Shown here in pieces: positions 8,526 to 27,867 of a stretch of 64,000 bases of DNA (position 1 is its first letter; each line of letters starts with the position of its first letter). The stretch comes from Coriobacteriales bacterium (GTDB taxonomy: Bacteria > Actinomycetota > Coriobacteriia > Coriobacteriales > UMGS124), in assembly GCA_048173955.1 (NCBI GenBank), contig DBEYOB010000046.1, forward strand, positions 12,413-76,412. Reading direction: 5' to 3'. The position numbers and the translations under genes are program-made. The notes beneath the pieces are model-generated. The model worked only from the letters and a program-made list of their open reading frames with translations, was not told the origin of the DNA and did not search any database.

Positions 8526-8551
8526 GACGATAGCATGCAGAATCTGGGCGG

Positions 8552-10300: not shown

Positions 10301-10793
10301 GCTCGAATCCTTTCCCAATCGGTTGCGGCATGCGGTCGCGCGTGGCCGGCGGGCTGGGCGGGCCGGGCGCCTGACTGGCGTCCGACGGGGTCCGGGTGCA
10401 CGTGCGGGAATCGGAGGCGCGGGACCCGAAAACGTGCGGCCCGAAACCGCGACCCGACGCCAGGAGTCCAGAGCCCGAAGGCGGGGCGATCCGCATGCCC
10501 TGCGGACGATGTCGATGATGGGGCGCGGGCCGCGGCTCGTGTATCCCATCGGGTTCGTGATTCACGCGATGACGGGAACCGATGGCAATTCACCACGGAG
10601 ATATGATGGCATGCGAGCAGGCATTTCAAGGTGCCGGCGGGTCGAAAGGGTCGCCGAACGTTCTCCGCGCGCGGATCGGCGGGGGTCGAGGCGAGGGGGC
10701 GGCAGGGGCGGTTGCGCGCGAACAGCGGGCGAACGGCGGACGGAGCCGCGCGGGAGGCGGATGGCAGTCAATGAAAATCAATAGCGAAAATAT

Positions 10794-10840
10794 CGGACGA
10801 AAGTCACGGTTTTCCCGAGCCAAAGTGTGACTTTCGTCCG
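10794..10840 (-). terminator. Candidate rho-independent terminator downstream of the CoADR gene
   Basis: Perfect 14-bp stem: CGGACGAAAGTCAC (10794-10807) pairs with GTGACTTTCGTCCG (10827-10840), with a 19-nt loop. On the minus strand the hairpin is followed by AUAUUUUCGCUAUUGAUUUUC. Confidence 0.4.
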
Positions 10841-10972
10841 ACAACAGGGTGTCAACGGGTCGAAAAGGCGCCGAGTGCATGCTGCGATACTGCGGGCTCG
10901 CGCGCCTGTGCCCCCCCCCTGTCTCGCGAGAGTCCGCGCCTCACGCTCTCTTGCCTCGCGCGCCCGTGCCCC

Positions 10973-12742
10973 CTACCGCAGCCCGCAGGGGCCCACACCT
11001 TCGGCGAGCGGGGCGCGGTCGGCCGCGGCCACCTGCTGCCGGTCTGCCTCGGCCCCCTGTCGGTCGAGCTCGATCTGCTCCCAAAGGCTGTACCCGCCGG
11101 CGACGTTCTTGCAGGCAAACCCGTGCTGCGCCAGGATGCGGCAGGCAAGGTAGCTGCGCAGGCCGGTCTGGCAGTGCACGTAGAGGGTCACGTCGCGGGG
11201 CAGCTCGCCCAGCCGGTCGCGCAGCTCGTCGAGCGGGATGTGCAGCGCGCCCTCCACGTGGCCGCGGGCGTGCTCGGCGTCGGTCCGCACGTCGACGAGG
11301 ACGCGGCCCCGCGGCATATCGGCCGCGTCGAGCGCCTCGCTCCAGCGCACCTGCTCGACCAGGCCGTCGAGCAGGTTTTCAATCGCATAGCCCGCCATGT
11401 TGACGGGGTCCTTTGCCGAGGAGTAGGGCGGGGCGTAGGCAAGGTCGAGCTCGGTCAGGTCGCGCGCGGTCATGCGGGCGCGCACCGCCACAGCGAGCAC
11501 GTCGATGCGCTTGTCGACGCCTTCGCGGCCGATGGCCTGGGCGCCCACGATGCGTCCGCCGGGTTTCTCGAACACCACCTTGAGCGCGATGGGGTGCGAG
11601 CCGGGATAGTAGGTCGCGTGGCTGGGCGGCGTCAGGATCACCGCGTCGCAGTCGAGGCCGGCGGTCCGGGCGGCTTTTTCGGTGAGGCCGGTGGTGGCTA
11701 CGGTCAGGTCGAACGCCTTCATGACCGAGGAGCCCTGCGACCCGGTGAAGCTGGTCGGGATTCCGCAGATGTTGTCCGCCGCGATGCGGCCCTGCTTGTT
11801 GGCGGGGCCGGCGAGGGCGATGAGCGCCGGCTGCCCGGTGACGGCGTTGACGACCTCGACCGCGTCGCCCACGGCGTAGATGTCGGGGTCGCTCGTGCGC
11901 ATGCGCTCGTCGACGCGGATGGCGTCGCGCAATCCCAACTCGAGCCCGGCCTCGCGGGCGAGCGTGCTGTCGGGCCGCACACCGACGGCGAGGATCGCCA
12001 TGTCGGAGACGAGCGGGTCTCGCCCTTCGAGGAGGGTCGCCACGCGGGCGCTGCGGTGCCCCGTTTCGGCGTCGCGTCCCGGCGCCTGAGCAAACCCGGC
12101 GACGGCGGCGTTGAGCGCGAGGCGCACGCCATGGGAGCGCAGGTGGTTGTGGAGGATGGGCGCCATGTCGTCGTCGAGCGTGGGCATCACGTGGCCGCCG
12201 CGCTGGACCACGGTGACCGCAAGGCCGCGCTCCGTCAGGTTCTCGGCCATCTCCAGTCCGATGAACCCGCCGCCCACCACGGTGGCGCTGCGCGGGGCGG
12301 TCTGCTCGACGAAGTCGGCGATAGCGAACGTGTCTTCCACCGTGCGCAGAGTGAACAGGTGCTCGATGTCGGTCCCCGGGATTGGCGGCACGACGGGCAG
12401 GGCCCCGGGTGCGAGGACGAGCTTGTCGTAGGGCTCGAGGTAGGTCGAGCTGTCGTGGAGCCGGCGCACCGTCACGGTTTTGGCGGCGCGGTCGATGGAG
12501 ACGACCTCCTGATGGGTGCGCGCATCGATGCGGAAGCGCCGCCAGAAGCTGTCGGGGGTCTGCAGGGTGAGCCGCGCGCGGTCCCGGATGACGCCGCCCA
12601 CGTAGTAGGGCAGCCCGCAGTTCGCGTAGCTCACGTACCCCGTGCGCTCGACGACCACGATCTGCGCCTGCTCGTCCAGGCGACGCAGGCGCGCGGCCGC
12701 CGTCGCTCCGCCTGCGACCCCGCCGACGATGACCACCTTCAT
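10973..12742 (-). CDS. CoA-disulfide reductase / NADH oxidase-type pyridine nucleotide-disulfide oxidoreductase with C-terminal rhodanese domain
   Basis: ORF 10973..12769, with the start at ATG 12740-12742 (GGAAGGAG upstream). It has MKVVIVGGVAGGATAAARLRR, the redox Cys context SYANCGLPYY, and a rhodanese active-site loop YVHCQTGLRS near the C-terminus. Confidence 0.85.
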   Translation of the reverse strand: MKVVIVGGVAGGATAAARLRRLDEQAQIVVVERTGYVSYANCGLPYYVGGVIRDRARLTLQTPDSFWRRFRIDARTHQEVVSIDRAAKTVTVRRLHDSSTYLEPYDKLVLAPGALPVVPPIPGTDIEHLFTLRTVEDTFAIADFVEQTAPRSATVVGGGFIGLEMAENLTERGLAVTVVQRGGHVMPTLDDDMAPILHNHLRSHGVRLALNAAVAGFAQAPGRDAETGHRSARVATLLEGRDPLVSDMAILAVGVRPDSTLAREAGLELGLRDAIRVDERMRTSDPDIYAVGDAVEVVNAVTGQPALIALAGPANKQGRIAADNICGIPTSFTGSQGSSVMKAFDLTVATTGLTEKAARTAGLDCDAVILTPPSHATYYPGSHPIALKVVFEKPGGRIVGAQAIGREGVDKRIDVLAVAVRARMTARDLTELDLAYAPPYSSAKDPVNMAGYAIENLLDGLVEQVRWSEALDAADMPRGRVLVDVRTDAEHARGHVEGALHIPLDELRDRLGELPRDVTLYVHCQTGLRSYLACRILAQHGFACKNVAGGYSLWEQIELDRQGAEADRQQVAAADRAPLAEGVGPCGLR

Positions 12743-13112
12743 GTCGCGCTCCTTCCGTGTCGCCCGCACCTACGTTTCCGGGCAGCTGGGCAGCTCTCTA
12801 TCCGACCGTCCTTCGGTACCATAGCATGCAGGCGATGATGGCGTGCGGGCGGCGGTTTTCGGGGAACGGCCCGGGGAGCGATGCGCAATCTCGCGTGGCT
12901 CGCGCGGCGATGTTCCGACCGAATTCGGCGTGTTCGTAGCAGATCGTTCGGGTGTGCGCGATTCTTCTGGCGCTCAAAATGCCGGCAACTCGGCAAACTG
13001 AAGGATAATCTTCCGGATATGAAAGTCAGGTTTCCTCTCATGCCCTGATTGCGTCTGACGGCCGTCGAACCCTCCGTACATACCCGATTGATTTGCTACG
13101 CCAGGCCGAATT

Positions 13113-13183
13113 TGCGTCGGAAGTCGCGCGGCTTGCGTCGGAAGTCGCGCGGCTCGCGTCGGAAGTCGCGCGGCTCGCGTTGC
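13113..13183. repeat. 21-bp tandem repeat, about 3.3 copies
   Basis: The unit (T/C)GCGTCGGAAGTCGCGCGGCT occupies 13113-13133, 13134-13154 and 13155-13175, followed by a partial fourth copy. It is intergenic. Confidence 0.8.
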
Positions 13184-13369
13184 AATCTCGCGCGGGCGCT
13201 CTGGTTTGCGCGGCCCTCCGCCGAGCTTTGCCGCGATTCCCGCCAGTCTCGTGCCATCCACCGAGTGGCGGGGCCGCCCTCCCTGCGGAAGGCGGCCCCG
13301 CCGATGCGTGCCGTTGCTGTTTGCCGGTGCCGTTTCCGTGCCGCCTGGCACCGTCCCCGCGCCGCCGCG

Positions 13370-14890
13370 CTACTCCTCGACGGTGCTCAGCGTGATGTCC
13401 GTTAGCACGCCGTCGTCGAACCACAGGCTGACGGTCTTGTAGTACTCGTCGGGCGTGGGGTTGAAGTCGAACGAGCGCGCCGTGCCGTCGTCCGAAGTCC
13501 AGTCGAACGCAGGCTCTCCGAAGACGGCGAGGGCCTCGTCGGGCGTCGCGGCGCCGAGCGCAAGGCCGCCGGAAATCTGAACCGTGTGGTCGCCGATGCT
13601 GCCGGCGTGGAACGAGACGCTCGAGACCATGCAGTTCTCAAAGGTCTGCTCGGAGCCCGAGCTGTTGTAGATCGTCGCCGTGACGTAGATGTAGTCGTCC
13701 GGGTCGCCGGAATAGAGCGAGACGGTCGTCTGGTAGCCGTCCTCGAGCACGTCGGTCGCCTCGTCGCCCTCGAACGTGAAGCCGAGCTCCTCGAAGTTGG
13801 CCACGGGGCAGGGGAGCTGCACGACGGTGTCGTCGACGAGCGCCTGGAAGCTGAACGGGTCGTCGGAGAGCTCGGCGGGCGCGGGGGCCGCCTCGAGGGC
13901 GGGAGCGTTGGCCGCGTCGGACCCCGAGCCGTTCGAGGACGCGGCCGCGTCGGTCGCGTCCTTCTGGGAGGCGGCGTCCCACGTGTAGTCGTCGTCACAG
14001 CGCAGCGTGACGTCGGAGAGCACGTCGCCGACTACGGTGAAGTCGACGTGGGTGAGCGGGGAGTCGTCCCGCTCGTAGCTGAACGCCACGTAGTCGCCGT
14101 CGATGAAGGGGTCCTCGGCCGGGCCGTAGACCGCCTCGATGTCGGCCTGCGACGAGGTGCCGATCGAGATGCCGCCGGGAAGCACGACCTCGTGCCCCTC
14201 GAGCCCGTACTCGGTGAGCGAGACCATGTCGACGGCGCACTCCTCGAAAGGTAGCTCCGTGCCGGACGCGTTGTAGAGGCTGCAGGTGATGTAGACGTAG
14301 TCGTCGGGGTCGCCGTAGTAGAGCGTGGTGGTCGTGGAGTAGCCGTCTTCGAGCACGTCGCCCGCCTCGTCCTCGGCGAGGGAGAAGCCCGCACGCTCGA
14401 GGTCGGACAGCTTGCAGGGCAGCTGAAAGACCTTCCCGTCGAGTTGGAACTGCATGGCGAACGGGTCGTCGGAAAGCTCGAGGGGGGCTTCTTCGCCGGC
14501 GTCTTCGGCCGCGGCCGTCCCCGCCGCAATCGCGGCGTCGCGGGCCGTCCCGCCTGCGGACGCCTCCGTGCTGGCGGCGTCCGCCTCGTCGGCGGCGTCC
14601 GACTCATCGGTGGCGCCCGCCTCGTCGGCAGAGGACGAGGTCCCCATGCCCGAAAGGAGCCCGCCGGACGTCGAGGTGCTCTCTGCTGCACCCTCGGCGG
14701 ACGGGGTCTGGTCATCGGTTGCGTCGGCCCCTGCCCCGAGCTGGGCGGCGATGCCCGCAAGGAGCGAGCCGGACGAAGAGCCTTCCGATCCGGTCTCCGC
14801 GGCGAGGGAAACGGTCGCGAAACCTCCGATGCCCAAGCCCAGCGTGGCCACCAGCGCGGCCGATACGGCGAGCGGTGCTTTGCGTTCCAT
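13370..14890 (-). CDS. Secreted or membrane-anchored protein of unknown function with an internally duplicated ~150-aa domain
   Basis: ORF 13370..15085, with the start at ATG 14888-14890 (GAGAGGA upstream). The signal/anchor is MERKAPLAVSAALVATLGLGIGGFATVSLA, followed by a Ser/Gly/Asp/Ala-rich linker. Two homologous modules follow, both beginning (L/A)ELSDDPF and sharing DVLEDGY-TT--LY-GDPDDY-Y. Confidence 0.7.
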   Translation of the reverse strand: MERKAPLAVSAALVATLGLGIGGFATVSLAAETGSEGSSSGSLLAGIAAQLGAGADATDDQTPSAEGAAESTSTSGGLLSGMGTSSSADEAGATDESDAADEADAASTEASAGGTARDAAIAAGTAAAEDAGEEAPLELSDDPFAMQFQLDGKVFQLPCKLSDLERAGFSLAEDEAGDVLEDGYSTTTTLYYGDPDDYVYITCSLYNASGTELPFEECAVDMVSLTEYGLEGHEVVLPGGISIGTSSQADIEAVYGPAEDPFIDGDYVAFSYERDDSPLTHVDFTVVGDVLSDVTLRCDDDYTWDAASQKDATDAAASSNGSGSDAANAPALEAAPAPAELSDDPFSFQALVDDTVVQLPCPVANFEELGFTFEGDEATDVLEDGYQTTVSLYSGDPDDYIYVTATIYNSSGSEQTFENCMVSSVSFHAGSIGDHTVQISGGLALGAATPDEALAVFGEPAFDWTSDDGTARSFDFNPTPDEYYKTVSLWFDDGVLTDITLSTVEE

Positions 14891-15151: not shown

Positions 15152-15901
15152 TCAGCTTGCCTGCAGCATCTGCCGATAGAGCTCCTCGAGCCCTGCGCAG
15201 CGGCTCCCCAGCGACGCGGTGAGCCTCGGTGCCGAGGGTTCGCTGCGCTTTGCCGGCGTTGCCAGGTATGCGGAGAGCGCCTGCCGTTGCTGGCGGTATT
15301 CTCCGGAAAGGAGCTGCCGCAGGAGCTCGGCGGTCACCTGGGCGTCGTAGAGGGCCTGGTGGGCGCTGTTGACGTTGAGCGCCGCCCCGGTCCAGTCGGC
15401 TGCCGTTTTGAGCGACATGAGCTTGCGGCGGTCGCCCACCTGCATCAGGCGCGGATAGATGCGCTGCAGGTCGAGCCAGTGGCGCATCTGGTCGGGAAGT
15501 TCGATGCCCTTGCGGGCGCATTCGCCTTCGACCTGCCTTTTGTCGGTGCCGCTCCATGTGACGAGACGCGTGCGGCCGGAACCGGCCCATGCGGCGAAGC
15601 TTTCGACGACCTCTTCGAGCGGCTCGGCGTCGCGCAGGTCGGCGTCGCGGATGCCGGTCAGATTTACGATCCAGGGGGCGACGTGCGCGGCATATGCGGG
15701 CTTGATGCGCCTGCAGAACGTGTCAACCGTGTTGCCGCAGGCGTCCACCCTGACGGCGCCGATTTCGATGATTTCGTTACGCAGGCCGAAGTGCCGTGCG
15801 CTCCTGGGCGTCGGGGTGAACTCGAGGTCCACGACGATGTTCTGAATGGACGGAATGCCGTTGGCAGTGTGCCGTGCGTCTCGGTATGCGTCGTCCTGCA
15901 T
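15152..15901 (-). CDS. DEDDh-type 3'-5' exonuclease (DnaQ/KapD-like)
   Basis: 249-aa ORF with the exo motifs VVDLEFT, EIIEIGAV, WSGTDKRQ and SAHQALYDA. GGGAGGG lies upstream of the ATG. Confidence 0.8.
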   Translation of the reverse strand: MQDDAYRDARHTANGIPSIQNIVVDLEFTPTPRSARHFGLRNEIIEIGAVRVDACGNTVDTFCRRIKPAYAAHVAPWIVNLTGIRDADLRDAEPLEEVVESFAAWAGSGRTRLVTWSGTDKRQVEGECARKGIELPDQMRHWLDLQRIYPRLMQVGDRRKLMSLKTAADWTGAALNVNSAHQALYDAQVTAELLRQLLSGEYRQQRQALSAYLATPAKRSEPSAPRLTASLGSRCAGLEELYRQMLQAS

Positions 15902-16048
15902 GGTTGCCCTCCCGACCCTCGTGCCGTGCCGTGCGCGTGCATGCGGTGCGCGCGAATGTGGCGCGCGCGTGCGATGCGTTCGATGAGAACCAGCATACGG
16001 ATCGGGCGGAGGGATTCTTGTACAAGGAGGCCCGCAGCGGGCGGGGTG

Positions 16049-16194
16049 GGCACGTGATTCTGCAGGTGAGGGGTGGACGTTTTGCGGCCGAGTGCGTGAT
16101 TCTGCAGGCGGTGATGGTCGTTTTGCGGCCGAGTGCGTGATTTCCAGAAAGTGATGGTCATTTTGCCACCGAATGCGTGCGGAAAATGGCCGCC
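16049..16194. repeat. Degenerate ~41-bp tandem array (about 3.6 units) forming the left part of the R1 element
   Basis: The units start at 16049, 16090, 16131 and 16171. Each begins G(A/C)(G/A)(T/C)GCGTG and ends GGTC(G/A)TTTTGC(G/C)(G/A)CC. Confidence 0.7.
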
Positions 16195-16360
16195 TACGGG
16201 TGCGGTTCGCTCTTGGCGGGTAGCGGCGGCTCGTCTACCAGGCATTTCGCTATGGGGTCAAGAATAAGAGGGGAGCACGCCTCCCTTTCCCGCACGCACT
16301 CGCTGGTTTTTTGACCGGTACTTTTCCGGAAACACGCACTCGGCTCCCGATTGACCACCG
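16131..16360. repeat. R1 repeat, copy A (230 bp), MITE-like with ~31-bp imperfect inverted ends
   Basis: It aligns base for base with 21700-21929 with only 3 mismatches (at 16200, 16227 and 16289). The inverted ends are CGAGTGCGTGATTTCCAGAAAGTGATGGTCA and TTGACCGGTACTTTTCCGGAAACACGCACTCGG. Confidence 0.9.
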
Positions 16361-16458
16361 CGCTCTCGCGCCCTGCCCGCAATCACGCACTCGGCCTCGG
16401 ATTGGCCACCCCGCACGACAATCCTGACGTTCCTCATGCTTTTCTTCGTTGCGTCCGC

Positions 16459-17382
16459 TTACGCCATCCCGCCCACTGCGCCCCGGCCGTCGCGTTCGGC
16501 GATAGCCCCTTGCAGCGCTTCGACGAACCTCGACCGCGCATCCCACGTTTCTCGCGTTCCCACCAGGAAGATAGGCAGGTACATGGGTGGCTCGAGCGGG
16601 ACCGTTGCGATAGAGGGCTGCAGCTCCGAGTAGCCCTCGGGAGCGATCATCGTGTTGCCCTCCTGCCAGTAACGGTCGTAAGCGTCCATGTTGTAGTCGT
16701 TCTCGTTGTCAACAATGGCGATGTCTCGCGCTCCGTGCGTCTCTAGATACGACCGAACGGAGTCGATGGGCGGTACGTGGCCGCGCTTCACCATGCCGAC
16801 GGTCATGCCGGAGAGATCGTCAACGGTCGCATGTGTCTTTTTTGCAAGGGGATGGTCACGCTGGACGGCGATACAGAGCGCGAGTTGCCCGATCTCGAGG
16901 CCTTCCAGCTTTGGATGGCGTTCGCGGTCGAAGGGGCCGATGACGAAGTCGGTGACGTTGTCGAGCAGGTCGTATACCTTTTCGACGGAGTCGTACTTGA
17001 TGCCGATGGGAACGACCTGGATGATGAACTGCGCAGAGAAACAGCCAGCATGGTTCCAAAGGTCGGTCAGAACTCTGATCGACCCGGCGTAGGGGGCACT
17101 GACGCGCACGGTGCTCGCTTTGGCGCCGGCGACCTTCCAGGCGCGGTCGACCATTTCCCGCGTTTCCGCAAGCAGGCGCCGGGCGTCTCCGTACACCGAC
17201 TTTCCCGCCTCGGTCGGGACGACGCCCTTGTTGGTTCGCGTGAGCAGCGGAAGGCCGACCCACGATTCAAGTCGGTTAATGCGCTTCATGACGGCGACCG
17301 GAGATAGATACAGCTCAGAGGCAGCCTGAGAGAGGCTACCCCTCTCGACGGTGCAAACAAACGCCCTGAGGTTTTCGTACAT
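16459..17382 (-). CDS. LysR-family transcriptional regulator
   Basis: ORF 16459..17490, with the start at ATG 17380-17382. The N-terminal wHTH is MYENLRAFVCTVERGSLSQAASELYLSPVAVMKRINRLESWVGLPLLTRT. The gene is divergent from the molybdoenzyme operon. Confidence 0.85.
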   Translation of the reverse strand: MYENLRAFVCTVERGSLSQAASELYLSPVAVMKRINRLESWVGLPLLTRTNKGVVPTEAGKSVYGDARRLLAETREMVDRAWKVAGAKASTVRVSAPYAGSIRVLTDLWNHAGCFSAQFIIQVVPIGIKYDSVEKVYDLLDNVTDFVIGPFDRERHPKLEGLEIGQLALCIAVQRDHPLAKKTHATVDDLSGMTVGMVKRGHVPPIDSVRSYLETHGARDIAIVDNENDYNMDAYDRYWQEGNTMIAPEGYSELQPSIATVPLEPPMYLPIFLVGTRETWDARSRFVEALQGAIAERDGRGAVGGMA

Positions 17383-17496
17383 GGCCGCCGCCTTTCGACG
17401 AGAGCGCTCTTTCAGAGGCGCAAACCGATGCCAGTATGGTAACGGCCCTTCCGTTGCTGCGCACAATGCGCAGGTGACCACTCCTGTCAAATAGCT

Positions 17497-17511
17497 TTAA
17501 CCGTCGGTTAA
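17497..17511. promoter_or_regulatory. Candidate LysR box (T-N11-A palindrome TTAACCGTCGGTTAA)
   Basis: The 15-bp palindrome is perfect apart from its central base. It sits 114 nt from the lysR start codon and 114 nt from the molybdoenzyme start codon. Confidence 0.4.
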
Positions 17512-17625
17512 CGCATCGTTATCTACTTGGATATTCCACACCGCCGCGCGACGGTACAACAATACATCCAGGCTGCCGGTTGCGGATCGGCGCACCGGCG
17601 TTATGGAAAAGAGGGAGAGGGCACT

Positions 17626-20103
17626 ATGGGAGCATCCCTAACTCGACGCAGCTTCGTGAAGGCCGCGGGCACCGCGCTTGCGGCGGCGTCGCTGTCCGGT
17701 CCGCTCGCATCCGCGCAGGCGGACAGCCTCGAGGTTGACGAGCAGGCGGCCGCGGGCGCCGCCGCCGAGGGCGAGGAGTTCACGTGCACGTGCTCGTGGA
17801 GCTGCTCGTTCTGCCAGTACCACATCTACGTGCGCGACGGCAACGTTTCGCACATGCTGCCCAAGGACGGCTTTACCTACCGGACCTGTCTCAAAGGACG
17901 CTCGCGCATCCAACGCACCTATTCCGAGGAGCGCATCCGCTACCCCATGCGCCGCGTCGAAGGCACTCCGCGCGGTGGCGGCGAATGGGAGCGCATCACT
18001 TGGGACGAGGCGGTCGATGCCATCGTCTCCCAGTGGAAGAAGACCGAGGAGGAGTACGGCCCCCTCGCCAACACCTACTATCAGGGCGGCGGCGGAGCCC
18101 AGGGATCGCTCAACGGCAACGCCGGCCTCATCATGCGCCTCTTCAACGCGCTCGGCTGCACGAAGTGGGACTATTCGTTCGACAACGCCACCAACACGGG
18201 CCTGACCCGCGGCGGCATCCAGTGGTTCGACCAGAACGAGCCCGAGGACTTCGTCAACTCCGACTACATCCTGCTCATGGGCGCCAACCCCGTGAATGCG
18301 CAGATCCAGATGTGGCAGCACATCGCCAACGCCCAGGATGCCGGCGCCAAGCTCGTCTGCGTCGACCCGCTGTTCTCGCCGACCGTCGCCAAGGCCGACA
18401 AGTGGATTCCGGTCAAGCCGGGCTGCGACACGGCCCTGTATCTCGGCCTTATCAAGCGTTTCATGGACGAGGGCACCTACAACGCCGACTTCGTGCTCAA
18501 CCACACCTGCGCCCCCTACCTGGTGCACGTGGGCGGAGACGCCGACAAGATGTACGTACGCGGCAGTGAGTTCGGCGAGCCCACGCACGTCGGCCCGAAC
18601 AACTGGGTGACCGGCCTGCCGACCGAGATCGACCCGATCATGGTGTGGAGCGAGAGCGCTGGGGCGCCCCAGCCCTTCGATACCTGCACAGACCCCGTTA
18701 TGACGGGTGTGCCTTCCGAAGAGTACGTCACGGCGTGGGATCTGTTTACGGAGCACGTGCAGGAGTGGACGTTCGAGAAGGTCAGCGAGGTTTGCGGAAT
18801 CTCTCAGGAGGATTTCGACTACCTCTACGACGTCCTGCAGCCCGAGCACAAAGTTGCCCACTACATCAACTTCGGTACGGGCGCCTATGAGAACGGCCTG
18901 CATGCCGCCTATGCGCTGGTCGCCCTTATCGCGATGACCGGCAACTTCGGCGAGCCCGGCCGCAGCGTCGGCGGTTTCGACTCGATGTACGGCAACTTCT
19001 TCGGCCACGCGCTGTGCACGCCCTCGAACGGCAACATGTGCAAGGCCGTGACGTTCCTCGCCGCGTGCGACATCATGAACTCCGGCGAACTCATGGGCGA
19101 GCCCTATCCGATTAAGAACATCTGGATCAGCCATGGCGGCCTTATCGGCGGCAGCGTCAACTCCAACCGCGTGAAGCACGAGCTGCTCGACAACATGGAG
19201 CAGATTGTCGTCCAGGACCCGTTCATGACCGACACGGCGCGCTATGCCGACATCCTGCTGCCCGTCACCGACATGTACGAGTACGAGGACGTCGTGCCGC
19301 TGAGCCACGAGAAGGACGTGCGCATCTCCGAGAAGTGCATCGAGCCGATGTACGAGGCCAAGACCGATTCCGAGATCGCCCGCCTGTTCGGTGAGGCCTT
19401 CGGTCTGGCCGACGCGGTGTGCGATGTGACGGATGACGACTGGTGGCGCGGCACCTTCGACGACGTCCAGGCGGCCGTCGACCACGGCATCACGATGGAC
19501 ACCCTGCGCGAGAACAAGATCATGCGCTACGTCGACGACCAGCCCTACATCGGCAACAAGGGTCTCACGAACTTCATCACCGAGACTGGCCGCCTGATGT
19601 TCTACGTCGATGCTCCCGCGCCGCGCACGCCGTCGAACTACGACACTTCCAATGTCGAGCGCGAGCGCATGCCCACCTACTTCGAGAACCTCATTTCGGG
19701 CGAGAACAGCGAGTACGCCGCCGACTACCCGCTCGTGTGCATCTCGTGGCGCAACCCGGCCCGCGTGCACATGACCCAGTTCATGAAGACCTGGGCGCGC
19801 GACGTCATGCCCGAGCCGACGCTGTTCATCAACCCCGAGGACGCCGCCAAGTACGGCGTCGAGGACGGCAGCCTGTGCCGCGTGTACAACTGGCTCGGCC
19901 AGTGCGTGCTCAGGGTCGCCTATCACACCGGCATGAGGCCCGGCATGACCTGCTACTACAAGGGCTATGCCGAGACCGAGACGAAGCTGGGCTCGCTTGG
20001 CGAGATTACGACCGACTATGCCGACCCCTATGCGGTGAACTGCTCGTTCTTCGACAACCGCATCGCGATCGAGCCCTGGTCTGACGACGAGGCGGAGGAA
20101 TAA
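17626..20103 (+). CDS. Tat-exported bis-MGD molybdopterin oxidoreductase, catalytic subunit (DMSO reductase superfamily)
   Basis: ORF 17527..20103, with the start at ATG 17626 (GAGGGAGAGGG upstream). The signal is MGASLTRRSFVKAAGTALAAASLSGPLASAQA. An N-terminal Cys cluster CTCSWSCSFC...RTC follows. The protein is about 825 aa, and an FeS subunit gene lies immediately downstream. Confidence 0.9.
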   Translation: MGASLTRRSFVKAAGTALAAASLSGPLASAQADSLEVDEQAAAGAAAEGEEFTCTCSWSCSFCQYHIYVRDGNVSHMLPKDGFTYRTCLKGRSRIQRTYSEERIRYPMRRVEGTPRGGGEWERITWDEAVDAIVSQWKKTEEEYGPLANTYYQGGGGAQGSLNGNAGLIMRLFNALGCTKWDYSFDNATNTGLTRGGIQWFDQNEPEDFVNSDYILLMGANPVNAQIQMWQHIANAQDAGAKLVCVDPLFSPTVAKADKWIPVKPGCDTALYLGLIKRFMDEGTYNADFVLNHTCAPYLVHVGGDADKMYVRGSEFGEPTHVGPNNWVTGLPTEIDPIMVWSESAGAPQPFDTCTDPVMTGVPSEEYVTAWDLFTEHVQEWTFEKVSEVCGISQEDFDYLYDVLQPEHKVAHYINFGTGAYENGLHAAYALVALIAMTGNFGEPGRSVGGFDSMYGNFFGHALCTPSNGNMCKAVTFLAACDIMNSGELMGEPYPIKNIWISHGGLIGGSVNSNRVKHELLDNMEQIVVQDPFMTDTARYADILLPVTDMYEYEDVVPLSHEKDVRISEKCIEPMYEAKTDSEIARLFGEAFGLADAVCDVTDDDWWRGTFDDVQAAVDHGITMDTLRENKIMRYVDDQPYIGNKGLTNFITETGRLMFYVDAPAPRTPSNYDTSNVERERMPTYFENLISGENSEYAADYPLVCISWRNPARVHMTQFMKTWARDVMPEPTLFINPEDAAKYGVEDGSLCRVYNWLGQCVLRVAYHTGMRPGMTCYYKGYAETETKLGSLGEITTDYADPYAVNCSFFDNRIAIEPWSDDEAEE

Positions 20104-20108
20104 CCACC

Positions 20109-20732
20109 ATGGCACACTATGCTATCGCGCTCGACACCCACCGCTGCATCGGGTGCTTCTCGTGCAGCGTGGCCTGCAAGCTTGAGAACAACCTCCCCGA
20201 CCAGGTTTGGTACGCCGAGGTGAAGACGGTTGGCGGCAACTCCATGCACACGCCTGCCGGAGAGTACGGCGCCAACACCCTGAGCTACCTGGTCACGCAG
20301 TGCAACCACTGTGACAATCCCGCTTGCGTTGCGGCGTGCCCCACGGGTGCGACCTACAAGGACGAGGCGACCGGCATCGTCATGCAGAACACCGAGGAGT
20401 GCATCGGCTGCCAGTCCTGCATCGAGGCTTGCCCCTACGAGGGCGTCCGCACCTACGTCGACGGCGACCCCGTCTCGGCACTCGACTTCCCGGTCGGTTC
20501 GGTCGAGGCGCCGGTGCACCTGGCCAACACGGTCGAAAAGTGCACGATGTGCCACCATCGCGTTTCCCAGGGTCGTATTCCTGCGTGTGTGGAGGGCTGC
20601 CCGGCTCGCGCCCGTGTCTTTGGTGACCTCGATGATCCCGAGAGCGAGATTTCGAAGCTCCTGGCTGAGCGCGAGTACACGCAGCTGCTTCCCGAGGAAG
20701 GCACTGGCCCCAACGTGTTCTACCTGTCGTAA
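20109..20732 (+). CDS. 4Fe-4S ferredoxin-type electron-transfer subunit (DmsB/NrfC-like)
   Basis: 207 aa with four Cys clusters: CIGCFSCSVACK, CNHCDNPACVAACP, CIGCQSCIEACP and CTMCHHR...CVEGCP. It starts 5 nt after the stop of the catalytic subunit gene. Confidence 0.9.
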   Translation: MAHYAIALDTHRCIGCFSCSVACKLENNLPDQVWYAEVKTVGGNSMHTPAGEYGANTLSYLVTQCNHCDNPACVAACPTGATYKDEATGIVMQNTEECIGCQSCIEACPYEGVRTYVDGDPVSALDFPVGSVEAPVHLANTVEKCTMCHHRVSQGRIPACVEGCPARARVFGDLDDPESEISKLLAEREYTQLLPEEGTGPNVFYLS

Positions 20733-20802
20733 GGGGTACGTGTAAGGCAAGCTTCCCGCCGAGGTGGCTTGCTGTTCCTGTTGGAGCGTGTTAGAAAAGC
20801 GT

Positions 20803-20848
20803 GGGGATGCGGGCGCGTTGGTTTACCGGCTGCCCGCATCCCCGTTTT
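20803..20848 (+). terminator. Rho-independent terminator-like hairpin between the FeS subunit and chaperone genes
   Basis: Perfect 12-bp stem: GGGGATGCGGGC (20803-20814) pairs with GCCCGCATCCCC (20832-20843). It is followed by GTTTTCC. Confidence 0.55.
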
Positions 20849-20971
20849 CCTGCATGCCCGTCTATCTTGCGCATGTCCGCCCCTCTCGATGGCTGCCATC
20901 GGCGGAAGCCGGTGTCTCTGATGCCCGCTTTGCCACAGGCCGGATTTGCCCGAACCTTCAAGGAGGTTTTC

Positions 20972-21595
20972 ATGTCGACGAACCTTGGGAACATGTTTCG
21001 GCTGCTCTCGGTCGCGTTCAAGCCGCCGACCTCCGATTTGGCAAACGTCGTCGTATCGGGGGAGTTGTCGAAGGCGATGGCCGACACTTGGCGTACCCTG
21101 GGGCTTGACGGTGAAAAAGCCGCCGCGTTTACCGGCGTTTTGGATGGCTATCGAGGCGACGACGCCGAGGATGTCCTCCACGAGCTGCGCCGCGAGCACA
21201 CTCGCTTGTTTTTGGGCAATCCACCGCTCGTCGAGAACTCCGAGGGCCCCTGGCGCAAGAAGGCCGAGGGCAAGATAGGGGTCGACCTCATGGTGAACTC
21301 CTACTCGCTCGAGATTCAGGAGTTCATGCGCCAATGCGGCGCGGTCAAGGCCAAGGGACGCAACGATTGTATTGACTATATCGAGGTTGAATGCGAGTTT
21401 GCCGCCATGCTGGCAGAACAGCCTCGGTATCTGGTCGATTTGGGCAAGGATCCTCTCGATCTGCTCGATTCGTTTATGGATGAGCATCTGAAGAAGTGGG
21501 TGCCCGGATTCTGCGTTGAGGTCGCCGAAAAGACGCGCCTGCCGTACTATCGCGAGCTGTGCGGGCTCATGGCGGCGTTTATGGGGGAGTTCTAG
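20972..21595 (+). CDS. TorD/DmsD-family redox-enzyme maturation chaperone
   Basis: ORF 20801..21595, with the start at ATG 20972 (AAGGAGG 6 nt upstream). It is 207 aa, carries the motif ELRREHTRLFLG typical of TorD-like chaperones, and sits next to the Tat molybdoenzyme. Confidence 0.75.
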   Translation: MSTNLGNMFRLLSVAFKPPTSDLANVVVSGELSKAMADTWRTLGLDGEKAAAFTGVLDGYRGDDAEDVLHELRREHTRLFLGNPPLVENSEGPWRKKAEGKIGVDLMVNSYSLEIQEFMRQCGAVKAKGRNDCIDYIEVECEFAAMLAEQPRYLVDLGKDPLDLLDSFMDEHLKKWVPGFCVEVAEKTRLPYYRELCGLMAAFMGEF

Positions 21596-21699
21596 CCGAG
21601 GGTAAGGGGACGGGTGGGCTGTGAGCCGACTGTGGCGAGTGCGGGCTGCCTATGGAGCGGATGCACGTGCCCACCGTTGGAGATGACCATTTTCGGCGC

Positions 21700-21929
21700 G
21701 AGTGCGTGATTTCCAGAAAGTGATGGTCATTTTGCCACCGAATGCGTGCGGAAAATGGCCGCCTACGGATGCGGTTCGCTCTTGGCGGGTAGCGGTGGCT
21801 CGTCTACCAGGCATTTCGCTATGGGGTCAAGAATAAGAGGGGAGCACGCCTCCCTTTCTCGCACGCACTCGCTGGTTTTTTGACCGGTACTTTTCCGGAA
21901 ACACGCACTCGGCTCCCGATTGACCACCG
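21700..21929. repeat. R1 repeat, copy B (230 bp), same orientation as copy A
   Basis: 227 of 230 positions are identical to 16131-16360. The flanks diverge immediately after CCACCG. Confidence 0.9.
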
Positions 21930-22143
21930 TCCCTCACCGCGCGCCCGCCGTCTTCCGCCGCTCGCTCCCCGCGCCCGTCTCGCACTGCACCCGACGCCGC
22001 CCGCCCCGCCGCCGGCTCGGAGACCTGGCGACGGGGCGGGCGGTTGACCTGCACGTTCGATACACTCCTGCGTGTTCGGCGTGCCTCTGCGCGCTTGCAC
22101 GCCTCCGCGCTTATGATCCCCGCGCTTATGCGCTCTTGCGCTC

Positions 22144-22191
22144 CTGCGCGCCTGCGCGCCTACGCGCCTGCGCGCCTACGCGCCTACGCGC
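22144..22191. repeat. Octanucleotide tandem repeat CCT(G/A)CGCG x 6
   Basis: Six contiguous 8-bp units were read directly from the sequence. The last unit overlaps the stop codon (22184-22186) of the flavoprotein gene. Confidence 0.7.
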
Positions 22192-23914
22192 CCGTGGCGG
22201 CGATGCGGCCGGCGCGGCGGGCGAACGTCGCGGAGCGGCCGGCGGCGAGGCCCGCCATCTGGTCGGGGTAGGTGTAGGCAAAGAAGCTGCCCGAGTCGTT
22301 GCCGCACACGTAGAGGCCCTCGATCAGGTTGCCCTCGGTGTCCAGGGCGTTCATGTTCTCGTCGATCTTGATGCCGTCCATGGTGCACAGCATGTAGCCG
22401 GTGTTGCGCACCCCGTAGAACGGCGCGGTGTCGACGGGCGACAGGCGGAACGGCTCCTTGCCGAAGTCGGGGTCCTCGCCGTTGGCGTAGTTCTCGTTGT
22501 TGCGCTCGACGGTGGCGACGAGGTTGTCGGCCGGGATGCCGAGCTTCTCGGCGAGCTCCTCGATGGTGTCGGCCTGCTGGATGAAGCCCTGCTCGATGAG
22601 GCCCTGGTTCATGGCCTTGGCCGTCTCCAGGTCGATGGCCGAGACCGGGGCGCCGTTCGTGAACGGGAACATGCGCGAGCAGCCCTGCGTCTTGAACTGG
22701 TACACGTAGTCCTCGAAGTTGGAGTCCCAGATGGTGGCGTAGGTGTGGCCCGGCTGGTCGATCGAGGCGTGGAGGATGAAGTCGTAGGGAGCGCTCTCGT
22801 TGGCAAAACGCTCGCCGTTGAGGTTGACCTTGAGCCAGGGCTGCGAGGACATCCAGAACATGCCGTTGACCATTTCCTCGCCGGCGATCATGTCGGGCAT
22901 GAGCGGGCAGCGGTCGAAGAGCATGCTCGTGTGGACCTCGTCGAAGGCCGCGCCGGCCCAGATGCAGGCCTTGATGCCGTCGCCCGTGGAACCCGGGATG
23001 CCCGAGTTGAACGAGAAGGTCAGCTTGGTCTCGGCCTGCAGGGCGCTCATCATGTCGTCGTTGAGCGCGTAGCCGCCTGTGCACACGAGCACGCCCTTGG
23101 CGGCGTTGACGCGCAGGTGGGCGCCCTCGGCGTCCTGGGCGACGATGCCGGTCACGCGGCCGGTCTCGTCCTGCTCGAGCTTGACCATGGCGGTGCTGTA
23201 GCGCACCTCCACGCCGAGCTCGGTGGCGTAGTCGATGAGCACGGCGCCGTCCTCGCTCGTGCGGCCGTCGGCCACGCAGGCGTGGCCCGTGGCCCAGTGG
23301 CGGTAGTTCATGATGTCGGCGTACTCGTCGAGGTCGTGGTCGGCGTCGTACATGAACTCGCGGCCGGCCTTGACGCACAGGTCGCCGTACCACTCGATGG
23401 CCTCGGCGCTCTCGTCGGCCCACAGGCGCAGCAGCTTGGTGTTGACGTTGGAGGCGGAGTACATCGTCATCTCGCGGCAGATGTCGGTGGCCTTGATGTC
23501 GCAGTCGTCTTCGAGCTGGTACTTGGTGCCGATGGCGCCGAGGGTGCCGCGGATGCCCGGGCTCGCCTCGTTCTTCTCGACGACGAGGACCTTGGCGCCG
23601 TTCTCGGCAGCGGTGCACGCGGCGAACAGGCCGGCGGTGCCGTAGCCCACCACGAGCACGTCGCACTCGAGGGTCTCGGCGATCTGGTCCTCGGCGACCT
23701 CGGGGGCCGTGCCGAGCCATGCGGGCACGTCGGCGTTTGCGGCGGCGGTTGACGTGCTGTCAGCGGAAGCCGCGCCGTCGGCCGCCGCGCCGTCGCCGGC
23801 GGTCTCGGCCGCCTCGTCGGCCAGGGCGACGGAGGCCGCCAGCGCCGTGCCGGCGGCAAGGGCTGCGGTGCCGGTCACGAAGCCGCGGCGGGTGAGCTTG
23901 TCCATCGTGTCCAT
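22184..23914 (-). CDS. Tat-exported FAD-dependent oxidoreductase (fumarate-reductase-like flavoprotein family)
   Basis: ORF 22184..24223, with the start at ATG 23912-23914 (GAAAGGAA upstream). It has the signal MDTMDKLTRRGFVTGTAALAAGTALAASVALA, the motif CDVLVVGYGTAGLFAA and a C-terminal GLYVCGNDSG motif. Confidence 0.85.
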   Translation of the reverse strand: MDTMDKLTRRGFVTGTAALAAGTALAASVALADEAAETAGDGAAADGAASADSTSTAAANADVPAWLGTAPEVAEDQIAETLECDVLVVGYGTAGLFAACTAAENGAKVLVVEKNEASPGIRGTLGAIGTKYQLEDDCDIKATDICREMTMYSASNVNTKLLRLWADESAEAIEWYGDLCVKAGREFMYDADHDLDEYADIMNYRHWATGHACVADGRTSEDGAVLIDYATELGVEVRYSTAMVKLEQDETGRVTGIVAQDAEGAHLRVNAAKGVLVCTGGYALNDDMMSALQAETKLTFSFNSGIPGSTGDGIKACIWAGAAFDEVHTSMLFDRCPLMPDMIAGEEMVNGMFWMSSQPWLKVNLNGERFANESAPYDFILHASIDQPGHTYATIWDSNFEDYVYQFKTQGCSRMFPFTNGAPVSAIDLETAKAMNQGLIEQGFIQQADTIEELAEKLGIPADNLVATVERNNENYANGEDPDFGKEPFRLSPVDTAPFYGVRNTGYMLCTMDGIKIDENMNALDTEGNLIEGLYVCGNDSGSFFAYTYPDQMAGLAAGRSATFARRAGRIAATGA

Positions 23915-24223
23915 GGGTGCGTTCCTTTCTGTGCGTTCCCTCCGATTGAAGGGGGACGGGGTGTCACGCCGACGCCGATGCCGATGCCGACGTCGGCCGT
24001 GCCGTGCGGCTCCCACCATAGGCGCGGCGGGTTGCGAAGACCTCACCCACTGTTCATGATTGTCGGCATGGGGTGTTTCGGGGGCCGTCGTCACCCGGAG
24101 TTCACGACGCCGGGGAGTAAGATTGACCCGAAACGACCCGCCCTCCAAACCGGGCGCAGGGGTGCGACGGGGATGCGGGGGCGGTCCCGGGGCGGGCTGA
24201 CGCGGCGAGGGAGGCGGACGCAC

Positions 24224-25648
24224 ATGTCAATCGGCGTGCACGGAAGGCCGGCTGCGACCGCCCTGATCTCGTTTGCGCTTTACGCCCTGTGCAACTGGGT
24301 GCTCACGAGCAAGGTGTTCCCCCTGGGGACGGAGGTCGCCCCGCTGTGTCGCGATGTCGCCACGCTCGTCGAGGCGCTGGGGTTCCTCGTCGTGTCCCTC
24401 GTCGCCGCCCGCGCTCCGCACGCCCTCGGTCGGAGGTTGTTCTGCGTCGCCCCCGTGGTCCTCACGACGGTCGGGGCGCTGCTGCTCTGGCTGGGGCGCG
24501 GCACGGCCTGGACGGCGACGCTCGCCCTGTGCCTGCTGCTGCTCTCGGCCGTCTTCGTGATGCTGTTCGTCGGGTGCGCCCTGTCTCGGCTCGACGAGCG
24601 CCTGGTGGGGCCGTGCGTGCTCGCAGGCCTCGTCGTCTCGTACCTGGCGCGGTTCTGTCTGGTCGATGTCCCGGGCATTCCGATGCTTGCGCTGTTCGCG
24701 GTGGGGCAGGTCGCTGTGATCGCGGTTGCGCGCGGTGCGGTCGCCGACGCGCTGGACGTCCTGCGGAGCGGCGCCGCGCCCGAGGAGCTCGCCCTGACCA
24801 ACCCGTTCTCGTTTCTGCCGCGCACCCACCGGCTGTTCGTCTGCGTGCTGCTCTTCCAGACGGCCTATGGGGCCGGCCTTTCGTTCGGCGAGGTCGACAG
24901 CACGCCGCTGGCGACCTTTGCCGGTGTGGTGCCCCTGCTCGTCGTGTGCGTTGCGGGTGCCGCGGCGAGGAGGCTCCCCAGCGGCGACACGATGTTCGGC
25001 GTGGCGCTGCTGTTCGTTATGGCGGGCATCCTGTTCGCCCCGCTGTCCCAGGAGCTGGGCGGGTCGCTGACGAGCAACCTGCTCGAGGCGGGCAGCTCGT
25101 GCTTCATGCTCGTGTACTGGTCGGTCCTTGCAAGCCTCGCCCTGCGCAACCGCTCGGGCGTCCTGCCGCTGTTTTCGTGGAGCGGGTTTTTGCTGAGCCT
25201 AGGCGTGGTGGCGGGGGCCGCGCTGGGACGCGGGTACTACGCCGTGCTGGAAGGCGGGCCGGTCGTCGGAACCGTGACGGTGGGGGTCGCCGTGCTCGCC
25301 CTGATGGCGTTCGCCCTGTTCGGCTTGAAGAGGTTCAGCTTCGACGACACGGTCCGGGCCCTCGTGGAAAGCCCCGAGGTGGCCGAGGCGTCCGCCGCGC
25401 CCGCCGATTCCGGCAGCGGGGACGACGCCGTGGCGGGCATGCCGGAGCGCTACGGCCTCACCGCGCGCGAGGCCGAGGTGTTCGCCCTGCTCGCCCAGGG
25501 CCGCAACGGCGCCTACATCCAGCGGCAGCTGGGCATAAGCTACAACACGATCAAGACGCACGTGGCCCACATCTATGCCAAGCTGGGCGTTCATGCGCAC
25601 CAGGAGCTGATCGACCTGGTGGAGGCCGTGCGGGGTGGCGAGGGGTGA
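24224..25648 (+). CDS. Membrane-bound LuxR-family regulator (multi-TM N-terminal domain + C-terminal HTH)
   Basis: ORF 23978..25648, with the start at ATG 24224. About 10 hydrophobic helices are followed by GLTAREAEVFALLAQGRNGAYIQRQLGISYNTIKTHVAHIYAKLG. The gene is divergent from the flavoprotein at 22184..23914. Confidence 0.8.
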   Translation: MSIGVHGRPAATALISFALYALCNWVLTSKVFPLGTEVAPLCRDVATLVEALGFLVVSLVAARAPHALGRRLFCVAPVVLTTVGALLLWLGRGTAWTATLALCLLLLSAVFVMLFVGCALSRLDERLVGPCVLAGLVVSYLARFCLVDVPGIPMLALFAVGQVAVIAVARGAVADALDVLRSGAAPEELALTNPFSFLPRTHRLFVCVLLFQTAYGAGLSFGEVDSTPLATFAGVVPLLVVCVAGAAARRLPSGDTMFGVALLFVMAGILFAPLSQELGGSLTSNLLEAGSSCFMLVYWSVLASLALRNRSGVLPLFSWSGFLLSLGVVAGAALGRGYYAVLEGGPVVGTVTVGVAVLALMAFALFGLKRFSFDDTVRALVESPEVAEASAAPADSGSGDDAVAGMPERYGLTAREAEVFALLAQGRNGAYIQRQLGISYNTIKTHVAHIYAKLGVHAHQELIDLVEAVRGGEG

Positions 25649-25696
25649 GGGGAAGGGCCACCGAAGGGGGAGCCGCTGCATGTGGCTGTGCTGTAC

Positions 25697-25820
25697 GGCT
25701 GTGCGGGCTGACAGGTGTCTACTTTTCATGCATGTTGTAACTACAACATCCGCGAGCTGGGGTTTGTCGGAAAACCCTCAGCTTCTTTCAGAAAGTAGAC
25801 ATGCGTCAGCCCGCACAGCC
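25697..25820. repeat. R2 palindromic MITE-like element, copy b (124 bp)
   Basis: The ends GGCTGTGCGGGCTGACAGGTGTCTACTTT and AAAGTAGACATGCGTCAGCCCGCACAGCC form an inverted repeat of about 29 bp with 2 mismatches. Part of the core matches copies c to e (AAACCCTCAGC-TCTTTCAGAAA). Confidence 0.6.
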
Positions 25821-25960
25821 GTCTGAGGGGCGCTCACGGTCGGCCTTTTTGGCCAGGCAAGGGCCAAAACGCTGACACGGACCGGCAAAGCCTGCCGTTC
25901 TCATGGTTTGGATATTCGGGGCACTACTCGGTGTCGAGCCTCGTGCCTGCACCCCCACAA

Positions 25961-27540: not shown

Positions 27541-27741
27541 GGGGACCTCCGGGTGTCTGCGGGTTGTCGGGCGCGTGTGCGATGCTTGCGTGATGCCTGT
27601 GCGATGCCGAGAAGTATAGCCGACCGGAGGCCGGGAGGTGTGCCGGCGATGTGCCGGCGCGAGGCCGGTAGGCGGCGGATGTGTGGGCTGGGGCTGCCCG
27701 CTGGAAACGGCTGTGCGGGCCGGTGGGCGGCCCGCTGGAAC

Positions 27742-27867
27742 GGCCGTGCGGGCTGACGGCTGTCTAATTTCTGAAAGAGGTTGAGGGTTTGGCGGAAAAA
27801 CCGCAGGTCGCGCTATCCCAACTTGAGGGTTTTCCGAAAAGTGAACACCCTGTCAGCCCGCACAGCC
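27742..27867. repeat. R2 palindromic MITE-like element, copy c (126 bp), followed by a 44-bp tandem duplication of its right end
   Basis: The ends are GGCCGTGCGGGCTGACGG and CTGTCAGCCCGCACAGCC. About 94 percent of positions are identical to copy d by eye. The right end plus flank is duplicated (27850-27893 and 27894-27930). Confidence 0.7.

Follow-up and report, generated by a model that had tools for sequence, protein, structure and literature searches.

Direct copies of a palindromic intergenic element mark the gain and loss of a molybdoenzyme cassette in Eggerthellaceae

Introduction

Modular hairpin repeats are known from several bacteria, among them BOX of Streptococcus pneumoniae and the ERIC/IRU elements and bacterial interspersed mosaic elements (BIMEs) of enterobacteria, and repeats of this type act as substrates of ectopic recombination. 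Here, we describe two direct copies of a palindromic intergenic element, named A and B, in a 64-kb stretch of contig DBEYOB010000046.1 (GenBank assembly: GCA_048173955.1) from an uncultured Eggerthellaceae bacterium. The whole stretch is called the window in the following. A and B bracket a cassette of four genes for a LysR-family regulator, the catalytic and iron-sulfur (FeS) subunits of a molybdopterin (Mo) enzyme and a TorD-like chaperone. Comparison with related assemblies shows that the repeats mark the gain and loss of this cassette, and they probably also mediate them. We consider it likely that the cassette is an accessory unit bounded by repeats at which recombination brings it in, removes it or exchanges it for another, and that it is not a transposon.

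Like BOX, ERIC and BIME repeats, the element is extragenic, non-coding and dispersed, its modules vary in copy number, and it is palindromic overall, so that the transcript folds into a long stem. It differs from them in that its sub-repeats are singly non-palindromic and carry no GTAG or CGTC tag, in its conserved unit GG-N12-CGAGTGCRTG and in its host, a member of the actinobacterial Eggerthellaceae. Moreover, no gene for a REP-associated tyrosine transposase (RAYT, a Y1 transposase) was seen among the scanned open reading frames (ORFs) of the window.

Loop-out and loop-in of the Campbell type between direct repeats are known from the translocatable units of IS26 and from deletions and amplifications mediated by rrn operons or insertion sequences (IS). 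The locus described here shares with these systems the flanking direct repeats, the single hybrid repeat with two outer flanks in the deletion product and the mutual homogenising of the copies. The repeat itself is of another kind, namely a non-coding palindrome of 230-350 nt which encodes no enzyme and is neither an IS nor an rRNA operon.

Integron cassette arrays, with their attC sites, and Xer-dependent dif modules separate gene modules by imperfect palindromic sites. At our locus there are likewise imperfect palindromic sites with variable centres between modules, and alternative modules occupy the same slot. However, the cassettes comprise several genes, are self-regulated and occur in both orientations. 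No Phage_integrase-type protein was found among the scanned ORFs of the window, and neither an IntI integrase nor attI or Pc was found there. The elements (250-350 nt) are two to three times longer than attC sites (57-141 nt, R''-L''/L'-R' with a GTTRRRY core), and their junctions, ...GGCCGCCGCGCACG on one side and GCCCATCGTCGG... on the other, show no such core by inspection, no pattern search having been run.

Repetitive extragenic palindromic (REP) units are 20-40 nt long, and each one is an imperfect palindrome with a GTAG or CGTC tag (PMC3733652; see also PMC8049555 for intergenic repeats of this type). As the single sub-repeats of A and B are not palindromic, the element does not belong to the REP, BIME or REPIN classes. 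In Acinetobacter, pairs of a 439-bp miniature inverted-repeat transposable element (MITE) and of MITE-297 flank resistance regions in the manner of a composite transposon (PMC6382973). Here, too, two small non-coding elements with inverted repeats bracket a functional module which varies between strains. Unlike the Acinetobacter pairs, A and B lack target-site duplications, and a search of the window yielded no cognate IS; furthermore, the unit is seen at one locus only, and sites without the cassette retain one copy of the element.

A strain-variable cassette between two near-identical repeats

A repeat search detected a direct repeat of 251 nt with 96% identity (16110-16360 and 21679-21929) and a start-to-start distance of 5569 nt. 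Base-by-base comparison of the cores of A and B (Table 1) gave three mismatches in 230 positions: 16200 (G/A), 16227 (C/T) and 16290 (C/T). Outside the cores the identity between A and B collapses, with 15 mismatches in the 31 nt of 16100-16130 and 20 in the 30 nt of 16361-16390. To the left of the core, 28 nt (16115-16142 vs 21684-21711) form a homologous but diverged sub-repeat with 75% identity, so the near-identical tract begins within an older shared element.

A first-pass annotation of the window, made from its letters alone, had described same-orientation repeats of 230 bp with three mismatches which bracket the LysR, Mo subunit, FeS subunit and TorD-like chaperone genes and nothing else. 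The exact comparison and a check of the genes agree with this description. Its statement that the flanks are unrelated holds insofar as identity collapses outside the cores, but not for the diverged sub-repeat on the left. The inverted ends of 31 bp that it reported do exist, but they are arrays of ~40-nt sub-repeats and not simple terminal inverted repeats.

Orthologous loci were collected with the exonuclease gene to the left of A, the left anchor, and with its 90% cluster. The loci and contigs from related assemblies which were compared with the window carry L numbers (L001, L114 and so on). Every close match to the locus is a metagenome assembly, and study codes such as LEEK22-1, VALL22-1, YOKO23-1 and others look like those of human-gut studies.

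The slot between the exonuclease gene and the FAD_binding_2 reductase gene to the right of B (FAD576, the right anchor) was found in three states among these assemblies. The Mo cassette between two elements is present in at least 12 assemblies (the window, L001, L002, L113, L115-L117, L124, L128, L130, L146, L147 and L149). At least seven assemblies have no cassette and one hybrid element (L114, L119 and L136-L142). Alignments of L114 and L119 to window positions 25652-21690 and 16360-13244 overlap by 238 nt without runs of N, and this overlap is a single element with the outer flank of B on one side and the outer flank of A on the other. The same single-element state, with an overlap of 269 nt, is found in at least five samples in L136-L142, a lineage with ~91% nucleotide identity, where an additional spacer and a third sub-repeat in inverted orientation give the element an architecture of its own. 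In the third state (L118, L121, L123, L125 and L126), another cassette, consisting of the FAD571 reductase and the LuxR-type regulator GerE482, lies between the same two elements. A copying of this cassette from another module of the window was considered and rejected, since the window has only 28%-identical paralogues of it. The Mo and FAD571 cassettes are unrelated. On both sides their junctions with the elements coincide to the nucleotide, one following ...GGATTGGCCGCCGCGCACG and the other preceding GCCCATCGTCGGAGATGGC... in the sequence.

The first-pass annotation had proposed that the cassette can be excised via the repeats and had predicted relatives in which the locus is collapsed to a single repeat copy. 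L114, L119 and L136-L142 are such relatives, and the strains with a single hybrid element bear out the excision; the cassette is not invariantly present among relatives. Where it is present, the Mo cassette occupies this one chromosomal slot, in the same context in all assemblies examined.

Two groups of loci add detail to this picture. In the sister lineage L104/L105, with flanks 92-95% identical, the Mo cassette is in place next to a full element B, while site A is a gap of 182 nt (L104 8439-8619) with one sub-repeat only (GTCAACGGGGCCGAATGCGTGTTTCCGGAAAAGTGAC); a bracket of two elements is thus not needed for the presence of the cassette. L114 is a mosaic: on the LuxR side it is 98% identical to the cassette-less lineage, whereas in the element and on the side of the exonuclease gene it shares 99% identity with strains that carry the cassette. 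This indicates that exchange between lineages occurs in this region.

The LuxR gene next to FAD576 is itself variable. Its N-terminal half (24125-24269 in the window; L114 3001-4500) is hypervariable, with 80-87% identity among strains which are otherwise 97-99% identical. In this half, the L114 sequence is the allele of the other lineage, and this also indicates recombination between lineages.

Concerted evolution of A and B

Within one genome, A and B differ at 3-6 positions of their 231-nt cores in the window, L002, L117, L123 and L125, and at 28-30 positions in L113, L121 and L124. In the latter three, site B has a different centre, called beta, which is also found in L006. Among strains the identity between A and B ranges from 87% to 98.7%, with mosaic tracts. 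The mean difference between genomes is 5.8 positions for the A copies and 17.8 for the B copies. Several variants are common to both copies of one genome but are not found in the orthologous copies of other genomes: at one site both window copies have C and both L002 copies have T, and L125 has a private 1-nt deletion in A as well as in B. The right end of A in the window has the B-type nucleotides T, T and A, whereas most other A copies have C, C and G or a fused sub-repeat. In L121 the beta tract at site B has other end columns than in L113 and L124, and it is embedded there in otherwise L117-like flanks.

Because the identity between A and B is strain-specific and the tracts are mosaic, the near-identity reflects recent gene conversion and not a recent arrival. 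The pattern has the signature that repeated gene conversion with variable tract ends would leave, and the beta tracts imply that at least one more copy, at another place in the genome, has probably served as a donor of the beta type.

Structure of the element

Elements of this family consist of two to four direct sub-repeats of ~40 nt, a centre of ~100 nt which is less GC-rich, and the same sub-repeats in inverted orientation. Tandem Repeats Finder detected 3.1 copies with a period of 40-41 in the left arm of A; in the right arm, the motif CACGCACTCG is found at 16293, 16333 and 16384. The outer inverted arms of A (16066-16101 and 16381-16416) are 81% complementary and form an extra outer pair relative to B, in which the inverted arms (21699-21758 and 21852-21911) are 60 nt long with 70%. 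The number of sub-repeats in the left arm of A differs in L002 and L117. No genes are called within the element in related assemblies, and neither Rfam at its gathering thresholds nor a tRNA/tmRNA scan gave a match anywhere in the window.

On either strand, element A folds into a single long hairpin of -195 kcal/mol (z = -11 and -8.7). Five single sub-repeats that were tested fold no better than shuffled sequences (z from -1.8 to +1.6). The TorD-like and FAD-reductase genes converge on element B. The upstream LysR and FAD-reductase transcripts may be terminated by the long hairpin and by the hairpin with T-tract on the minus strand of the centre (Table 1).

An alignment of 54 sub-repeats from the window, its relatives and another Coriobacteriia metagenome-assembled genome (MAG) showed that only GG-N12-CGAGTGCRTG is strongly conserved. 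The strict conservation of this bipartite motif at fixed spacing across genera, together with the defined ends of the element, suggests a putative protein-binding site, which could explain how the family originally spread. The family of A and B appears to be previously undescribed; a literature search for repeats of this kind in Eggerthella or Eggerthellaceae gave nothing relevant. The phenomenon as such is of a known kind.

Probable recombination at the repeats and alternative explanations

The process that we favour can be outlined as follows. A and B are taken to be direct copies of a lineage-specific non-coding palindromic element which would recombine with each other because they are only 5.6 kb apart and have ~230 nt of homology in common. 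Non-reciprocal exchange, that is gene conversion, would keep homogenising the two copies, and so only three mismatches would be left in this strain. By a reciprocal exchange, the LysR-Mo-FeS-TorD cassette would be excised as a loop along with one of the elements, and one hybrid element would stay behind. A cassette could enter or be replaced by the reverse reaction or by double crossing-over with incoming DNA in which another module lies between two elements. These exchanges would be performed by the homologous-recombination machinery of the host (RecA). The features expected of a loop-out are seen at the locus, namely flanking repeats in the same orientation, one hybrid repeat with two outer flanks, and concerted evolution with variable tract ends.

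Several points weigh against this reading. All compared haplotypes come from metagenome assemblies, in which repeats may cause mis-joins, although this risk is lessened by long contigs (L124 with 1.56 Mb and L146 with 388 kb), by the use of several assemblers and by copies which are only 87% alike in some strains. No haplotype with both cassettes in tandem was found among the assemblies. The observed states of the slot could have arisen by insertion into a single element or equally by differential deletion from an ancestral array of two cassettes. Finally, the identical junctions of two unrelated cassettes and the 10-nt motif at fixed spacing across genera would also be predicted by a site-specific process guided by a protein.

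Such a process is an unlikely explanation, but it deserves to be spelled out. The element would be the site of an unrecognised cassette system in which an unidentified recombinase or transposase acts on the sub-repeat arrays of at least two element families and shuffles self-regulated respiratory reductase modules in Eggerthellaceae. The sub-repeats would serve as arm sites, strands would be exchanged at a fixed point, and circular modules would be inserted and excised as with attC or Xer/dif. The bipartite motif with fixed spacing as the only strongly conserved part of the 54 sub-repeats from several lineages fits with this, as do the inverted arrays around a centre, which recall att sites. 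The shared junction nucleotides on both sides of the two cassettes point the same way, although they are expected anyway if the element has defined ends. Further support comes from a second family of the same layout that separates other modules, one of which, the SEC-C module, is missing in L114 and L136, and from a PIN-domain gene between two motif arrays in MAG RUG440. On the other hand, neither the window nor the surroundings of the examined loci yielded a tyrosine or serine recombinase. The conversion tracts with their variable end-points and mosaic structure are typical of homologous exchange, the copy number of the sub-repeats drifts among strains, and the cassettes bring their own regulators in both orientations.

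It is hardly tenable that A and B are two MITEs which are mobilised in trans via their outermost inverted ends, so that MITE, cassette and MITE move as one composite transposon. The MITE label that the first-pass annotation had given to the repeat does match the inverted arms of 31-60 nt with 70-81%, the size of 250-350 nt and the lack of coding sequence. Pairs of MITEs are known to flank integrons or large regions in Acinetobacter (PMC6382973), and an IS3-like transposase gene is located in the window. However, no target-site duplication flanks A, B or the A..B unit. The IS3-like gene is the only transposase in the window and has no similarity to the element there, and a BLAST comparison of the window with itself gave no match to the element within the IS region. 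The label therefore cannot be upheld, and the same applies to the composite mobile unit that had been proposed. The cassette is never found in another context, the copies are direct and not inverted, and the sister lineage L104/L105 has the cassette with one full element. Sites without the cassette keep one element rather than none, which is predicted by recombination between the copies but not by cut-and-paste of a composite transposon. Plasmid and phage collections gave weak coding similarity at most and no link of the locus to plasmids or phages. We also rejected a variant in which the centres would be target DNA and the modules would be transposons whose ends consist of several sites, as the whole element including its ~100-nt centre is duplicated on both sides.

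The remaining alternative is that false cassette-less or chimeric contigs arose when assemblers skipped over the ~230-nt repeat, while the pair is a static local duplication. It is true that the repeat interrupts short-read contigs. Both ends of L003 (5398 nt) lie 30 nt within the cores, and L120 and L122 have their first nucleotides within the element. We nevertheless regard an artefact as very improbable. The cassette-less state is seen in at least seven assemblies from several pipelines, and the single-element architecture of L136-L142 cannot be produced by a collapse of A and B. In addition, the FAD571 haplotype has unique inner sequence that is joined consistently on both sides in five assemblies, including strains whose copies are only 88% alike.

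Implications of the locus

Gut Eggerthellaceae have large and strain-variable sets of Mo and flavin reductases, whose substrates include drugs as well as compounds from the diet and the host. The locus offers a concrete structural route for this variability, with self-regulated modules between dispersed palindromic repeats. In the slot studied here, a module is present, absent or replaced among strains and the break-points are at the repeat. The repeat also explains why such loci are fragmented in short-read assemblies, and inventories of these reductases based on MAGs may therefore be incomplete. A protein-binding role of GG-N12-CGAGTGCRTG, if confirmed, would hint at a so far undescribed machinery for the spread of repeats or the exchange of cassettes. 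Should recombination at the element turn out to be site-specific, the Eggerthellaceae would possess a functional counterpart of integrons or dif modules; to our knowledge, no such system has been described in this phylum.

Table 1. Coordinates of the elements, cassette genes and neighbouring features in the window
Feature	Position	Strand	Evidence or remark
Element A, full palindromic composite	16066-16416 (351 nt)		downstream of LysR, upstream of the exonuclease gene
Near-identical core of A	16131-16360	+	3 mismatches vs 21700-21929
Left arm of A	16053-16182	+	3 direct ~40/41-nt sub-repeats (16074-16101, 16115-16142, 16155-16182); degenerate fourth at ~16040-16066
Right arm of A	16290-16414	-	3 inverted sub-repeats (~16290-16318, 16330-16359, 16377-16414)
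Terminator-like hairpin in the centre of A	16271-16285	-	GGGAGGCGTGCTCCC then CTCTTATTCT; faces the LysR transcript; consensus scan
Element B	21684-21932		2 direct sub-repeats (21684-21711, 21724-21751), centre, 2 inverted sub-repeats
Near-identical core of B	21700-21929	+	exact comparison with the core of A
Terminator-like hairpin in B, same as in A	21840-21854	-	faces the FAD-reductase transcript; consensus scan
Element C, third member of the sub-repeat family	54650-54880		between PFOR and LuxR genes; unrelated centre
LysR-family regulator, 307 aa as called in other assemblies	16459-17382	-	Pfam HTH_1 (1.4e-18) and LysR_substrate
Catalytic subunit of the molybdopterin enzyme (DMSO-reductase family), exported by twin-arginine translocation (Tat), 825 aa	17626-20103	+	Pfam Molybdopterin, Molydop_binding
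Four-cluster 4Fe-4S electron-transfer subunit, 207 aa	20109-20732	+	Pfam Fer4_11; NCBIfam ArrB/DsrO/DmsB-like, below cut-offs
TorD/DmsD-type (Nitrate_red_del) maturation chaperone, 207 aa	20972-21595	+	PF02613 (1.7e-18); NCBIfam DMSO_red_II_cha weak
Left anchor, DEDD/RNase_T-type 3'-5' exonuclease	15152-15901	-	PF00929
Right anchor, FAD_binding_2 flavoprotein reductase FAD576 (576 aa)	22184-23914	-	Pfam
LuxR partner of FAD576	24224-25648	+	gene calls
IS3-like transposase ORF (HTH_21, rve and rve_2)	2721-4481	+	only mobile-element gene in the window

Genes of the cassette and neighbouring regions

The catalytic subunit has the twin-arginine motif TRRSFVK. It scores 256 bits against the dmsA_ynfE subfamily of NCBIfam, which is below the cut-off. 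Its orthologues are 66-82% identical, and those with a name are from Eggerthellaceae (Adlercreutzia and Slackia heliotrinireducens). In the next relatives, with Mo subunits 82% and 76% identical, the trio of Mo subunit, FeS subunit and chaperone lies at another locus, inside a longer operon behind a MarR gene, and no element motifs were found near this operon. L133 and L135, the nearest other Eggerthellaceae, have the MarR gene in front of the trio, which is followed by a Fer4 protein, a protein of 260-275 aa and a second chaperone. Compared with this operon, the cassette of the window appears to be a shorter version in which the regulator has been exchanged.

The genome of the related lineage has two exonuclease genes ~20 kb apart on one contig (L106 and L136; ERZ27318564:k141_49007), and the second one, with 69% identity, lies beside MarR and FUSC_2 genes. 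L106-L111, whose exonuclease is 69% identical, were rejected as an orthologous locus of a distant species, as this gene and the one in L136 are paralogues on one contig, and the paralogue could be mistaken for the orthologue. In the window, an ORF of 506-512 aa (13370-14890) has no Pfam match and contains an internal duplication of ~250 nt (13631-13882 and 14237-14488, 72%). Downstream of this ORF there is a 21-nt tandem repeat (13114-13195, 3.9 copies, 91%), at which alignments between strains break. On the other side of the cassette, a tandem repeat of 8/16/24 nt (CGCGCCTA / TGCGCGCC) lies at 22129-22192, just 3' of the stop codon of FAD576, and its length varies between strains.

A segment of 5.5 kb (7771-13267) with a LuxR-type gene, the FAD582 reductase and a Pyr_redox/rhodanese protein is absent from the ~91% lineage, and in L136 (10646-11262) it is replaced by ~600 nt of AT-rich unique sequence. 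We considered whether this absence is repeat-bounded like that of the cassette and rejected this, as no shared repeat is clearly located at the break-points. The IS3-like transposase ORF is followed by an AT-rich gap of ~500 nt (4481-4984).

Other elements of similar layout

The window has a G+C content of 66.8% and, according to Pfam, is rich in FAD_binding_2 and molybdopterin reductases with LuxR, LysR or TetR regulators. Its intergenic gaps usually measure 400-600 nt. It holds three members of the A/B family and one solo sub-repeat unit near 10858. A and B alone are alike, as C matches them by its arms only (88% over 52 nt).

A second family has the same layout with another unit (~CGGCTGTGCGGGC) and was found at 7821-8034, 25684-25837, 27673-27966, 29683-29934 and 33462-33710. 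Its centre holds AAACCGCAGGT, a shared motif that is mostly explained by the kinship among the copies of this family. The copies separate single modules, namely a SEC-C gene, an SLFN/AlbA_2 gene, and a module of an FAD reductase, cytochrome c3 and TetR. L114 and L136 lack the SEC-C gene. Besides these two families, there are one-off palindromic intergenic elements at 35199-35397, 42960-43193 and 58847-59091, with inverted arms of 39-49 nt and centres of 117-156 nt. The arms of the last one (GGCCAAAAACCTCGATCGTG) resemble diverged relatives of the sub-repeat unit of A, B and C. With so many such elements in the gaps of the window, bracketing by elements is not special in itself. What is special about A and B is that they belong to the same subfamily, are in direct orientation and are near-identical.

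Genome contigs were scanned with the pattern CGAGTGCGTG-N28-33-CGARTGCGTG. The matches were mostly chance hits in GC-rich genomes, true relatives were found only in the rumen/gut Coriobacteriia MAGs RUG440, RUG11163 and SRP141132_co8_248, and the species of the window itself was not among the matches. A scan of metagenome contigs with the conserved centre gave 0 hits and one with the sub-repeat pattern gave chance hits apart from L212. Inverted arrays of the CGAGTGCGTG motif are present in the rumen/gut MAGs and in contig L212. The scan of viral contigs yielded two isolated hits with a single match each.

In L056 (RUG440, 1-2000) and L042 (RUG11163, 300-2300), the 10-nt motif occurs in palindromic arrays with a period of 19/32 nt and almost no centre. 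In these rumen MAGs two motif arrays bracket a segment of ~1.7 kb, which encodes a PIN-domain protein in L056. The genes between paired motif arrays in other MAGs were considered as transposases, and this was rejected, since one of them is a PIN-domain protein and the rest are unassigned.

At the start-codon end of the SLFN/AlbA_2 gene in the window (29545-29624), a palindrome of 37 nt and a tandem unit of 23 nt with TCGAGTCACTCGA were detected, which may be an operator.

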